A DNA stretch of 64,000 nt from a virus. Its lineage: Duplodnaviria; Caudoviricetes. The stretch lies in IMG/VR virus record IMGVR_UViG_3300013382_000001, positions 34,185 to 98,184 of that record, one strand, 5' to 3'. Under the pieces are notes generated by a model. It saw nothing but the letters and a program-made list of their open reading frames with translations. It had not been told where the DNA came from and did no database searches. Numbering within the stretch: position 1 is the first letter of the stretch; each line of letters opens with the position of its first letter. A program made the translations under genes and the position numbers. Below, piece by piece: positions 16,376 to 42,839 of the stretch.

Positions 16376-16778
16376 ATGATTATGATAGGACGGGCTAATA
16401 TATTAAATAATGTTTCGGGGGGGGGGGGGGGGGGATCATTGTTGATATCAAAAAGGATATAGACCTTCCAATCAAAGTTGATTTTATACCAACATTTGTT
16501 GGTATAAATGATAAAACATATAGTGGGTAACTCTTTCGAGATTTATATTAGGTTGTAGTGATGTATACATTATAAATACTGATTTACCTCAAAGTATTTT
16601 GTCGGAAGATGTTCATATATCTTATAAATTTACTGACGCGTTAGATTATAGAACTAAAATGATTTGGGTGTATTCAACCACATCTCAAATGTTGAATAGG
16701 TATATCGATAACGGATCTATATATTCAATATCGCCTATGTCTGATATAGATTTCTTACTTATATGTCAAACGAATTAA
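16376..16778 (+). pseudogene. Poly-G interrupted tail-tip-like gene (MIGRANILNNVSGGG...), currently out of frame
   Basis: AAGGAG RBS; leader, then G18 (16417-16434). Continuation GIIVDIKK...TYSG lies in the -1 frame. A further shift at ggg 16525-16527 leads to VTLSRFILG...ICQTN*. Confidence 0.6.
16417..16434 (+). repeat. G18 homopolymer
   Basis: Directly visible. Confidence 0.9.
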
Positions 16779-27647: not shown

Positions 27648-28955
27648 TTATTTTTCAAAATCTACTCTTTCTAATGCTTTTTCAAAGGCACCGATTCCAC
27701 TAAATAAACTTATGACATTCATCCCTGTTATAAAGTCATTAGGATAAGCATCGTGTAAACATTTGTATATCTCTTCAAGCACATTTACGACAATAGAGTT
27801 ACCTGCTTGTTTGTAGAGCTGTGAATTACTATTAACCTTTTTGGCTCTCTCAAAGTCCTCATCGCTAAATACCATAAGTCTATAACATTCTTTTGGAGTA
27901 AGTTTACGGATTCGGAAATCTTTTGGCGTTAATACTTTGGGTTGTCTATTTCCACCTTCCATTGTGTTAAGTGTTGGGGATAAACCATCTGAACCATAAA
28001 CCCTACGAATCTGCTCATTTCCCTTTATATCTAATAATCCAAGCATTTGAATTTTATTATGCTCATTTTCACATAATTCACTCACACTAAATGCTGACTT
28101 ATTTGTATCTATCTGTGGTGTATTGATAAAAAACTGGTCTACTTTATCTTGTTTAATGTAGTACCTCTCTTCAACCTCATTTTCAAGAAAATCTCTTAAT
28201 CTTAATCCATTATCAAAAGGTTTCGGGAATAAACTCGTATCATTTCTATCATAATACTTATTATGTGTGATGTGTCCTGTATAATTTTGGTTATTATCAA
28301 CATCTTCACGCACAGAAATAGCATAAATACGCTCTCTATTCTGTGGAATATCATAATTTTTCGCATTTAACACTTGATAATAAGTATTATACCCCATATT
28401 TTTCATCTCATCAACATAAGTATCAAATACAGGTTTGTGTTTTTTAGATAAGACATTTTTAACGTTCTCCCAAATAACGAATTTTGGTTTACAATGTCTG
28501 ATAATCTCGACCGAATTCCATAAGAGGCTTGAACGAGTTCCAGAACTCTTTACTCCACCATGCTGCTTACCGGAAATTGAAAAACTTTGACAAGGCGATC
28601 CGTGTGTAATCAAGTCAATATTGGTTGGCAGTTTATCAATATCAATCTGTGTAATATCACCAAGATTTAATCTTTCATCTACTCCATGTATAGCACAATA
28701 ACTCTTTACCGCATACTTATCAAATTCACAAAAATTCACTAAATTATAATTCATTTTATACTCCTTATATTCTTTTTTATTATCTTTGCCATTTGTATGA
28801 CTATCTTTTAGGAGTACCCCCCCCCCCCCCGAGCAGCATATCCCACCACAGTTTGCTGTAGTTAGTGTAGTACAAATACCATGAGATAAATCAATTAAAT
28901 CATATGGCGCAAACACACTTGGAATTTTGCCATACTTATCTATCATTTCTTTCAT
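27648..28955 (-). CDS. Circularly permuted C5-cytosine DNA methyltransferase (internal start 28754), with poly-G-linked N-terminal module
   Basis: Motifs II (FCEFD), IV (GSPCQSFS), VI (WENV), VIII (QNRERIY), IX (RKLTPKEC), X (KQAGNS), then motif I (SLFSGIGAFE) at the C-terminus. AAGGAG RBS precedes MNYNL. Confidence 0.88.
   Translation of the reverse strand: MKEMIDKYGKIPSVFAPYDLIDLSHGICTTLTTANCGGICCSGGGGVLLKDSHTNGKDNKKEYKEYKMNYNLVNFCEFDKYAVKSYCAIHGVDERLNLGDITQIDIDKLPTNIDLITHGSPCQSFSISGKQHGGVKSSGTRSSLLWNSVEIIRHCKPKFVIWENVKNVLSKKHKPVFDTYVDEMKNMGYNTYYQVLNAKNYDIPQNRERIYAISVREDVDNNQNYTGHITHNKYYDRNDTSLFPKPFDNGLRLRDFLENEVEERYYIKQDKVDQFFINTPQIDTNKSAFSVSELCENEHNKIQMLGLLDIKGNEQIRRVYGSDGLSPTLNTMEGGNRQPKVLTPKDFRIRKLTPKECYRLMVFSDEDFERAKKVNSNSQLYKQAGNSIVVNVLEEIYKCLHDAYPNDFITGMNVISLFSGIGAFEKALERVDFEK
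28817..28830 (-). repeat. G14 homopolymer (coding strand)
   Basis: C14 on + strand. Confidence 0.9.
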
Positions 28956-40534: not shown

Positions 40535-41365
40535 CTACCTCCCATTTATTTCTTTAGTTTTATTACCGAAATTTAACATTTCATCTTTTGCTCTTTGATA
40601 AAAGTTGCGATCAATTTCAAATCCGTATGCATTCCGGTTGAGTTCGATTGCCGCCCGAAGTGTTGAACCGCTTCCACAGCACGGATCAATTACAACATCG
40701 CCCTCATCAGTAAATGTTTCAATCAGCTTTTTTAATAGCTTTACCGGCTTTTGTGCCGGATGTATTTTCGGTATATCCTTGCCGTCTTTCTCCCAAGTGA
40801 ACCAGTTGAATACCATATGCCCCGTTCCGCGAATGTTTTTCCCGTTTTCGTCAATTTGTAAGCCGTTTCTGAACTTCGGCAACTTGTCGCGGTACAAAAG
40901 CAATGCATATTCTGTTGCACCGACTACGCGCATATTTGCCTTTAACACTTGCGGGCTGTAATTCTTGATAAACACAAGGGGGATGTAGTTATTAAATCCA
41001 TGCTTTCTTGCCGCGTCTATCAGGATTGATTGCTGTTCAAAGGAACAAAATACAATCATGCATGGGCTGTTGCTACTTCGCCCTCTTCCCTGTTTTGATG
41101 TGTCCTCTTTTTTCATCATTTTGTGGCAAAAATGAAAATATTCGTAAAGGTTAAAATTGAAATCGGAATTGAATGCTGCTTTCTTTGCAAATTTGCTTTC
41201 GCCGTTTTTGTTGTCGCCGCCGTTGTACCACATCGGATTACTGCCGTAAAAGTTATTGCCGACATTGTACGGCACATCCGCAATAATTAACTGTGCGGGC
41301 GGTATTGCATATTTCTTATAATTCTGCATAGAATCTCTAATTATCTCACATTTTGCTTTATTCAT
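40535..41365 (-). CDS. N6-adenine/N4-cytosine DNA methyltransferase (beta class)
   Basis: Motif IV ADVPY precedes HPAQKP and motif I DPCCGSGST; GFEID; probable start MNKAK. Confidence 0.88.
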   Translation of the reverse strand: MNKAKCEIIRDSMQNYKKYAIPPAQLIIADVPYNVGNNFYGSNPMWYNGGDNKNGESKFAKKAAFNSDFNFNLYEYFHFCHKMMKKEDTSKQGRGRSSNSPCMIVFCSFEQQSILIDAARKHGFNNYIPLVFIKNYSPQVLKANMRVVGATEYALLLYRDKLPKFRNGLQIDENGKNIRGTGHMVFNWFTWEKDGKDIPKIHPAQKPVKLLKKLIETFTDEGDVVIDPCCGSGSTLRAAIELNRNAYGFEIDRNFYQRAKDEMLNFGNKTKEINGR

Positions 41366-41370
41366 TTTTA

Positions 41371-42069
41371 CTATCCTTTCCACTTAAATAATTTCTCAAC
41401 AATTTTAAAATTATTATTTTTGTTCACATCTAATTTTCTTTGTATCTCTTGTTCCCATATAACTTCAAAGTCATCAGGTGCAACTTGTTCGCTTATCAGC
41501 ACAATATGATCTTTTGATAATTCGCGCATATATTCCCAAAATTCTTTGCTGTCGAATTTACCAAGCGAATAGCCTGTTGTATTTGCATAGGGTGGATCTG
41601 CATAGATTACTGCACCTTTCGGTATCTCTACATCTTTATAATCCAAACAAGTAAATTTTGCATTTTTAACCCCTTCAAAATCTTTAAGCAGGCTCCTGTT
41701 TGCTCTTGCACAGTAGTTATTACCCTTTTTATTTCTTGCTAATCCACCAAACCACTTGCCTCCAAAACTACATCCGAATCCCACAAATCCGGTCAATGCA
41801 GGATTCTCGTCCTTGTGTTCGCGAATGTGCTTATATTCATCTTCTGTAATAACATCTGGTGGAGTCCAGCCATCTTGCAAACCTTGCCACATTGCAATTA
41901 AATATGGATGTTTATCATTGCAAATTTTGTTAGGAATATTTACTTTTGATTCAATAGAACAAGAGCCACAAAATAAACTAACTAATGTGTCACAGTTACT
42001 CTCTCTCTCTCTCTCGATGACCGCAACTATTTGTTTCGCTATTCTGCTCTTTCCACCTAAGTACCTCAT
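41371..42069 (-). CDS. Dam/D12-class adenine methyltransferase B, with (GA)n tract
   Basis: RYLGGKS, SLFCGSCS, ND, YADPPY, ISE; ERERES encoded by the GA repeat. Confidence 0.88.
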   Translation of the reverse strand: MRYLGGKSRIAKQIVAVIERERESNCDTLVSLFCGSCSIESKVNIPNKICNDKHPYLIAMWQGLQDGWTPPDVITEDEYKHIREHKDENPALTGFVGFGCSFGGKWFGGLARNKKGNNYCARANRSLLKDFEGVKNAKFTCLDYKDVEIPKGAVIYADPPYANTTGYSLGKFDSKEFWEYMRELSKDHIVLISEQVAPDDFEVIWEQEIQRKLDVNKNNNFKIVEKLFKWKG

Positions 42070-42127
42070 TTTCAATTACCTCCGCTATGCTTTTTGAAAT
42101 TCTTGATTTTCCACCTTGATATTGCAT
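41996..42127 (-). CDS. Alternative out-of-frame N-terminus for methyltransferase B (43 aa, MQYQGGKSRISKSIAEVI...RERERE*)
   Basis: GGAGGA RBS; homologous to MRYLGGKSRIAKQIVAVI; stop codon immediately after the GA tract. Confidence 0.75.
   Translation of the reverse strand: MQYQGGKSRISKSIAEVIENEVLRWKEQNSETNSCGHRERERE
41999..42015 (-). repeat. (GA)8G dinucleotide tract
   Basis: (CT)8C on + strand. Confidence 0.92.
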
Positions 42128-42839
42128 TGTTCCTCCACTTAAACAATTTTTCAACTCTGTCTGTTCGACTATTTTTATCTAACGTACATTTTAGTGTCTT
42201 GCTCCATATACATTCAAAATCGTCTGGCATCCAATACTCACTTACAAGAACGATATTATCCTTACTCATTTCTCTAGCCCAATCATAAAATCGTTCATAC
42301 GGAAAATCTTCAGTTGCGTATTTTGTTGATGAACGATATGGTATATCACAATAAATAACAAAATTTAAAACCTTTGCACTTTGCTCAAATGAACAACAAT
42401 CAAATTTTATGTCTGTTAAGTTTGGTGCTTGCTTGATAAGGTTACGAATTGCTTCGTTGCATAGATCTCTAGGTGTTACCCCATCTGCCTTATATCCTCT
42501 TGGATATCCACCCCACCATTTGCCACCGAACGAACAAAAACCAACTAATCCTACATACCAATCTGGGTAACTTTGCGGATTTGCTCGAACCGCTTTGTAC
42601 TCTTTCTCACTAATAGTAGCAGGGAATATAGATGTGTCATTTTGTGCTTGTTTGAGCAAAGCAATAAGGTATGGATGGATATCACTACCAAATTTATGAG
42701 AACATTGGATTTTGTCAATCATGTTAGCACCGCCGCACATCGGTTCCCAATAGTGAGTTATACCATTATCGTCTATGAACTTTTGTATAATCAGAGCAAG
42801 GTCTTTAGATAAACGGTTCTTGCTTCCTACATACCTCAT
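42072..42839 (-). CDS. Dam/D12-class adenine methyltransferase A
   Basis: RYVGSKN, EPMCGGA, YCDIPY, VSEY, EKLF; paralogue of methyltransferase B. Confidence 0.85.
   Translation of the reverse strand: MRYVGSKNRLSKDLALIIQKFIDDNGITHYWEPMCGGANMIDKIQCSHKFGSDIHPYLIALLKQAQNDTSIFPATISEKEYKAVRANPQSYPDWYVGLVGFCSFGGKWWGGYPRGYKADGVTPRDLCNEAIRNLIKQAPNLTDIKFDCCSFEQSAKVLNFVIYCDIPYRSSTKYATEDFPYERFYDWAREMSKDNIVLVSEYWMPDDFECIWSKTLKCTLDKNSRTDRVEKLFKWRNNAISRWKIKNFKKHSGGN

Follow-up and report, generated by a model that had tools for sequence, protein, structure and literature searches.

In bacterial pathogens, phase-variable DNA methylases are a textbook example of on/off switching; that phages, too, carry hypermutable repeats has been recognized only recently. 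The concept closest to the locus described here is that of licA in Haemophilus influenzae, in which a repeat likewise lies early in the coding sequence, close to its 5′ end, and is preceded by several start codons. In the original work on licA, the starts reportedly lie in different frames and the number of repeats picks the one that is in frame, giving more than two expression states. The licA repeat is a tetranucleotide, and its alternative starts add a few unimportant residues and change the level of expression, whereas the phage DNA methylase considered here carries a dinucleotide or homopolymer repeat and each of its starts brings a diverged, conserved 19-codon element of the catalytic domain. 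Because each start supplies its own full cassette, the products would be two different proteins, unlike those of licA.

Among bacterial methyltransferases, phase variation has been described for Type III mod and Type I hsdM/hsdS genes, which form phasevarions (PMC5909438, PMC7383803), and for the (AG)n tract of Mycoplasma bovis mod, where switching is nonbinary and leaky off states are rescued by frameshift suppression (bioRxiv 10.64898/2026.04.01.715767). The likeness to the present locus is that a simple repeat, including AG/GA, within the open reading frame (ORF) of a methylase shifts the frame and thereby switches methylation genome-wide. Phasevarions have, however, been described as on/off devices of chromosomal restriction-modification systems in bacteria, whereas the gene examined here belongs to the Dam family of a phage, lies where no restriction partner was seen, and has a second productive frame that is hard-wired by a duplicated N-terminal cassette. 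A stochastic switch between methylation patterns is also known from the Type I hsdS shufflons (bioRxiv 10.1101/2020.06.18.137471), a likeness that would apply if the isoforms proposed below differ in specificity. The shufflons work by site-specific or homologous recombination of duplicated target-recognition domains, whereas the selection proposed here is that of a reading frame, by repeat slippage.

Contingency loci have also been reported in phages. Campylobacter Fletchervirus phages carry poly-G tracts in receptor-binding genes (Sorensen 2021, as cited in PMC12823448), and a study of T2/T4 contingency loci mentions in passing that a phage "thymine methylase" gene (BBP-1) contains a tract of poly-G (bioRxiv 10.1101/2025.10.21.683753). 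These loci resemble ours in having hypermutable repeats in phage genes, and their use in bet-hedging is the one that we propose for ours. They differ in that tail and receptor-binding genes are mainly affected, with on/off or truncation outcomes, and a dual-start design has not been described for them. The structurally characterized Escherichia coli Dam (EcoDam) and T4 Dam (PDB 2G1P, 1YFL) share with our enzyme the D12-class fold, an N-terminal aromatic-x-G-G-K element, an FxGxG-like motif I and DPPY; they are only about 20% identical to it and larger than its 232 amino acids, and neither has a repeat or alternative N-termini. In the literature searched, we found no description of a methylase switch in which a repeat chooses between duplicated N-terminal modules.

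The locus lies in IMGVR_UViG_3300013382_000001, a complete 98,184-bp virus genome with direct terminal repeats. The analyzed part of this genome, a stretch of 64 kb, is referred to as the window; the methylase genes and their features described below are on its minus strand. Three consecutive DNA methylase genes are found there. MTase A (42072..42839) is a Dam-like, D12-class paralogue of 255 amino acids that is 40% identical to MTase B. MTase B, opened by the ATG at 42069 and ending at 41371, is a PF02086 enzyme of 232 amino acids. MTase C (40535..41365) is situated directly downstream and was assigned to N6_N4_Mtase (PF01555) by its Pfam match. Besides these two further methylases, the neighbors of MTase B include two proteins without a Pfam match, and a nonexhaustive look at the neighborhood revealed no restriction gene.

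The original prediction, made from the DNA sequence, held that MTase B has two starts, each with a Shine-Dalgarno sequence and an MxYxGGKSRI N-terminus, and this is what the sequence contains. The distal start, B, follows the Shine-Dalgarno sequence GGAGGA at 42131..42136 and opens cassette B (ATG at 42127-42125; 58 nt, 42070..42127), a copy of the N-terminus beginning MQYQGGKSRI that was delineated from the sequence and from its pN/pS. The Shine-Dalgarno sequence of the proximal start, GGAGGT at 42078..42083, lies inside cassette B and is made by that cassette's own Ala-Glu-Val codons. The proximal start, A (ATG at 42069-42067), opens cassette A (42016..42069), the MRYLGGKSRI copy that is in frame with the rest of the enzyme. 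Both cassettes precede a 17-nt slippery tract, (GA)8G, at 41999..42015, after which comes the common catalytic body of MTase B (41371..41998), with motif I (LFCGSCS), DPPY and the stop codon TAG at 41373-41371.

The distance between the two ATGs is 58 nt, which corresponds to a frame offset of +1. At the present tract length, (GA)8, the body shares its frame with ATG-A and is shifted by 1 relative to ATG-B, so that start B opens an ORF of only 43 codons, closed by the TAA at 41996..41998 right after the tract. Addition of one GA unit brings B into frame and takes A out, and addition of two units or loss of one leaves both out. The frame arithmetic is thus in agreement with what had been predicted, namely, that A is joined to the body at present, that one extra GA swaps the two starts and that the third length class is off. 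Read in the B frame, cassette A becomes a stop-free linker of about 19 to 20 amino acids. The (GA)8G tract itself can be read without a stop codon in all three frames, each of which encodes alternating Glu and Arg.

The tract at 42015-41999 is an uninterrupted repeat within a coding sequence and is long enough to slip, as is usual for phase-variable genes. As reported for licA, the repeat is preceded by starts in different frames, both of which are open into it, an arrangement that was also found in all 10 loci examined. Only three long simple repeats are present in the window, the other two being G18 at 16417-16434 and C14 at 28817-28830 (G14 on the minus strand). Since long repeats are this rare in 64 kb of DNA with a G+C content of 35%, (GA)8G is no chance feature.

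We propose that the gene is probably a three-state contingency locus acting on a phage Dam-family methylase, a reading that rests on sequence comparison. The locus would encode an orphan Dam-family methylase with one catalytic body and two diverged N-terminal YxGGK cassettes (motif X), each with its own ribosome-binding site, which precede a (GA)n tract and differ from each other by one frame. With every step of replication slippage, the tract would gain or lose 2 nt, so that successive lengths cycle through three states. In state A, that of the window at (GA)8, the proximal cassette would be fused to the body, yielding the short enzyme of 232 amino acids. In state B, the distal cassette would be fused to the body via a disordered linker of about 20 amino acids, encoded by cassette A out of frame, yielding a long enzyme of about 252 amino acids. 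In the off state, neither cassette would be in frame with the body. A repeat of GA or poly-G would lend itself to this function, since it is free of stop codons and specifies the same linker, hydrophilic or of glycine, whichever frame is read.

The overlap of MTase A with cassette B, which had also been predicted, is present: the gene runs from 42839 to 42072, and its final 20 codons cross cassette B in the third frame. In the relatives L011 and L001, MTase A ends earlier, as KLFKWRG* and KLFKWKG*, respectively, so that MTase A of the window has a C-terminal extension of 20 codons (42072-42131). In L011, the stop codon overlaps ATG-B (TAATG), and the window has lost that stop; the overlap is therefore, judging from this comparison, incidental. 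We considered the C-terminal part of MTase A as a component of the switch and rejected it, since its frame closes at the TGA at 42074-42072, ahead of cassette A, and since MTase A of L011 stops before ATG-B.

Both Dam-like paralogues belong to the D12 class: with a PF02086 cutoff of 22 bits, MTase B scored 65.3 bits and MTase A scored 38.7 bits. The closest relative of MTase B with a solved structure was, by sequence, T4 Dam (E value of 1.5e-8). The motifs YLGGK, LFCGSCS and YADPPY occur in the order typical of alpha-class enzymes and showed no variation across two alignments, one of 75 and one of 55 sequences.

AlphaFold models were obtained for the short isoform of the window (pLDDT of 83) and for a natural long isoform, P0004 (pLDDT of 79). 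The model of isoform A matched EcoDam (2g1p_B) with a Z score of 16.6 and a root mean square deviation of 3.0 over 205 aligned residues, and that of isoform B matched 7m6b, T4Dam and EcoDam with Z scores of 14.8 to 15.7. In both models, which had a Dam-like fold, about 205 residues could be aligned with EcoDam, T4 Dam and DpnM, the alignment starting at residue 3. In the short isoform, the first helix was predicted to span residues 7 to 21 and the first strand residues 28 to 31, with the residues encoded by the repeat in the loop between them (22 to 27). The repeat is thus predicted to encode part of a surface loop that connects the first helix to the strand that binds SAM. In the long isoform, the helix spanned residues 7 to 28, residues 26 to 42 fell below a pLDDT of 50, and the first strand comprised residues 46 to 49. 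The models are consistent with the distal cassette forming the N-terminal helix at its usual position and with the extra segment being looped out.

We next consider how common this arrangement is. Scans of viral and metagenome contigs yielded 91 distinct loci of the same methylase family, with protein identities of 53 to 100%, and all were classified by one uniform script. Two YxGGK starts were found in 59 of these loci and a single start in the remaining 32. The tandem YxGGK double start, a search for which had been proposed, therefore recurs among Dam homologues, and 53 of the 59 loci with two starts also have a long repeat before motif I, as opposed to 5 of the 32 loci with one; the lineages compared are not phylogenetically independent, so that this and the other tests should be read as strong indications rather than as formal probabilities. 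The combination of the 58-nt offset with a repeat recurred in relatives of 60 to 100% protein identity. The repeats of the double-start loci were either GA tracts of 15 to 31 nt or poly-G tracts of G7 to G13, and tract length is thus variable, as the original prediction demands.

Among the 53 double-start loci with a repeat, 33 were in state A, 7 in state B and 10 in the off state, and 3 had both starts in frame; these states were read from consensus contigs of metagenomes, in which misassembly at the repeats could account for some of them. In the three loci with both starts in frame, a second repeat is located between the two copies. Off-state loci (L019, L026 and L145, for example) have retained their bodies as ORFs. 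The predicted allele with B in frame exists in nature, as full-length ORFs in 8 loci and in 52 of the best 120 protein clusters described below.

The consensus nature of the assemblies also bears on a first alternative, in which there is no switch, the GA run is a mere Glu/Arg-rich linker, and the frame differences are due to pseudogenes in decay or to misassembled repeats. Some relatives are indeed broken in the absence of any repeat: among single-start genes, L007 and L043 have a frameshift after codon 142, and L003, L015 and L040 are likewise broken, with L003 and L015 stopping after codon 62, at codon 63. These repeat-less genes suggest that the methylase is occasionally truly lost. We nevertheless regard the absence of a switch as very improbable, given that changes of state match differences in repeat length exactly between genomes that are 98 to 99.7% identical. 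For instance, L002 and L013 have a 22-nt tract and a 254-amino-acid ORF in state B, L012 has a 20-nt tract and is in state A, and only 2 of the 620 bases of the body differ between them. Similarly, L115 and L125 (state B) differ from L121 (state A) at 8 of 620 body bases. Furthermore, two types of repeat occupy the same loop, repeats are enriched in double-start loci, and the bodies of off-state genes stay open, none of which agrees with decay or misassembly.

Five relatives of one lineage (L092 to L095 and L120; for example, L092:3001-3804) have two repeats, a run of G8 to G10 between the cassettes and a GA tract after the second one, the latter being degenerate in L092 to L095 and 31 nt long in L120. 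Two repeats allow short, long, double-headed and off forms. In L092 to L094, a SAM synthetase gene is found directly upstream of the methylase, and in L092 to L095, a second PF02086 methylase is found downstream. In a sister clade of about 55% identity (L034 to L038; for example, L035:2501-3241), whose genes have only one start, a poly-G run of 4 to 9 occupies the corresponding position in the loop, and the frame is lost in some members. Sequence comparison suggests that an on/off switch arose independently in this clade at the same permissive site.

Three other searches added little to this collection. A family-alignment scan of genome contigs gave no confirmed relative, and the exact DNA pattern of the cassette junction matched only the contig that was already known. 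The public phage records contained just distant single-start Dam genes and a fragment, MT836958, in which a homologue of MTase A is present and MTase B is absent.

A second alternative is that the gene is an ordinary on/off phase-variable methylase, in which case the distal cassette would be a relic of duplication or recombination and the long B-type ORFs would be nonfunctional by-products. State A is the commonest (33 of 53 loci), and B could therefore be a tolerated minor form; moreover, single-start relatives work without a second cassette. To evaluate selection on the two N-termini, pN/pS was calculated from Nei-Gojobori pairwise sums for eight double-start lineages. For distal cassette B, the value was 0.29 in its own frame and 1.7 and 3.1 in the other frames. 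For proximal cassette A, it was 0.26 in its own frame and 0.96 and 1.81 in the others, the last of these being the B frame. Hence, by these ratios, each cassette is under purifying selection in its own frame and conserved as a protein, which is not expected of a relic. The linker of isoform B, that is, cassette A read out of frame, showed no sequence constraint (1.81) and was disordered in the model, as the on/off reading would have it.

In all of the 10 loci examined, the B frame crossed cassette A without a stop and the third frame was closed. Under shuffling of synonymous codons, the B frame would be expected to stay open with a frequency of 0.13 to 0.50 per locus. A B frame kept open in this way is what one would expect if translation from the distal start must read through. 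Translation signals were also retained at both starts: among 48 double-start loci, a Shine-Dalgarno core of at least 4 nt preceded 38 distal and 36 proximal starts, compared with 17% of random positions, and GGAGGT preceded 28 of the 48 proximal starts. Start B is thus conserved, being present in 59 of 91 loci, under purifying selection in its own frame and usually equipped with a Shine-Dalgarno sequence, as it should be if the original prediction is right.

The two cassette copies have only 30 to 37 of 54 nucleotides (56 to 69%) in common, and the duplication is therefore old and maintained rather than a fresh scar. The low similarity and the purifying selection on both copies led us to reject a recent recombination scar or tandem duplication, and the retention of so old a duplicate counts against the on/off reading as well. 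We also rejected a regulatory leader peptide as the main role of cassette B, because the cassette encodes a conserved element of the catalytic domain and is joined to the body in many natural genomes. Finally, state B is found in L091, which is closely related to the window and whose tract is short and interrupted. As judged from its sequence, this tract should be stable, so that the phage lineage appears to live with the long isoform only. A lineage locked in B and the tight association of the double start with the repeat are both at odds with B being a by-product, and we consider a simple on/off switch unlikely. The comparison instead supports the predicted three-state switch, with 33 A, 7 B and 10 off loci in nature and selection acting on both cassettes.

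Protein databases gave a similar picture. With a natural B-type protein as the query, 2,333 homologues were found at an E value of 1e-30 or less, and the best 120 clusters were classified. Fifty-two of these 120 contained long B-type ORFs, 52 contained short ones, and 8 had both motifs in one frame. The long B-type ORFs begin with the distal cassette, which is followed by a linker of about 20 amino acids and then by RE repeats or Gly. Single clusters at 90% identity mix short forms (230 to 236 amino acids), long forms (249 to 254 amino acids) and N-terminally truncated forms (173 amino acids), and the number of RE repeats varies within such clusters. The 173-amino-acid forms begin at an internal Met (MWxGLQ...) and occur in the clusters of P0001, P0036 and P0010 (P0123, P0152 and P0180, for example). 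From their sequences, we read these entries as gene-caller products of off-state alleles and not as real short proteins. In P0173 and P0101, both cassettes are directly in frame, so that YxGGKSRI appears twice in one protein. One cluster holds NCBI proteins of Ruminococcus that are encoded on contigs of up to 534 kb, which indicates that some members of the family are prophages; effects of these prophage members on the host are conceivable.

The remaining question is whether the two isoforms are equivalent. If they are, the second cassette would serve as a buffer against frameshifts, raising the fraction of tract lengths that yield an active enzyme from one-third to two-thirds. This possibility is a subcase of the three-state switch, from which it differs in payoff only. 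Both cassettes have the same YxGGKSRI core and are joined to the same body, the models of both isoforms have the same fold, and 43 of the 53 double-start loci with a repeat are in an on state, all of which would fit equivalent isoforms.

The two N-termini differ systematically at residue 2. Among the 59 double-start loci, the distal and proximal residues were Q and R in 47, R and Q in 10, H and R in 1, and K and R in 1; identical pairs, either Q/Q or R/R, were never found. In a maximum-likelihood tree of the bodies, the order of R and Q was flipped at least three to four times, with single- and double-start forms interleaved. Single-start relatives use the two residues about equally (R in 16 and Q in 15). 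A difference in all 59 double-start loci (R versus Q in 57), kept through repeated flips of the order, is not what a mere buffer would be expected to show, and neither is the even usage among single-start genes. The pattern points to a maintained difference rather than redundancy. We regard the buffer, in its strict form with equivalent isoforms, as a real possibility that falls somewhat short of being probable.

Because residue 3 aligns with W10 of EcoDam, residue 2 corresponds to EcoDam K9; it is thus residue 2 of these N-termini, and not the Lys of the GGK motif, that lines up with K9. In EcoDam, K9 and Y138 recognize the first base pair of the target, GATC, a contact that is not conserved across the Dam family (PMC4417163). 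It is plausible, from this correspondence, that the isoforms differ in target or flank preference. The stronger claim, that the repeat also switches specificity, with the isoforms methylating different or differently relaxed targets, is tentative, and we consider it possible but rather doubtful.

Within the three-state switch that we favor, we infer that slippage in the population is frequent and reversible, that both starts are translated, that isoform B is active, and that the payoff is bet-hedging. The phage would vary its DNA methylation and so hedge against hosts that have restriction systems or methylation-dependent nucleases. If specificity is switched too, each phage population would comprise three epigenetic types (pattern 1, pattern 2 and unmethylated), each of them adapted to hosts with a different set of restriction or methylation-dependent defenses, and frame selection would be a new way to switch a methylome without recombination.

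A single repeat in a phage gene would thus choose between two protein isoforms or none, by means of an essential N-terminal element that is duplicated in a second frame. The design is widespread, occurring with GA or poly-G repeats in dozens of gut phage and prophage lineages, and the switch would explain many of the "truncated" and "extended" Dam annotations in metagenome databases. It offers a concrete, testable case of a virus that may hedge its DNA methylation state against the defenses of its hosts.
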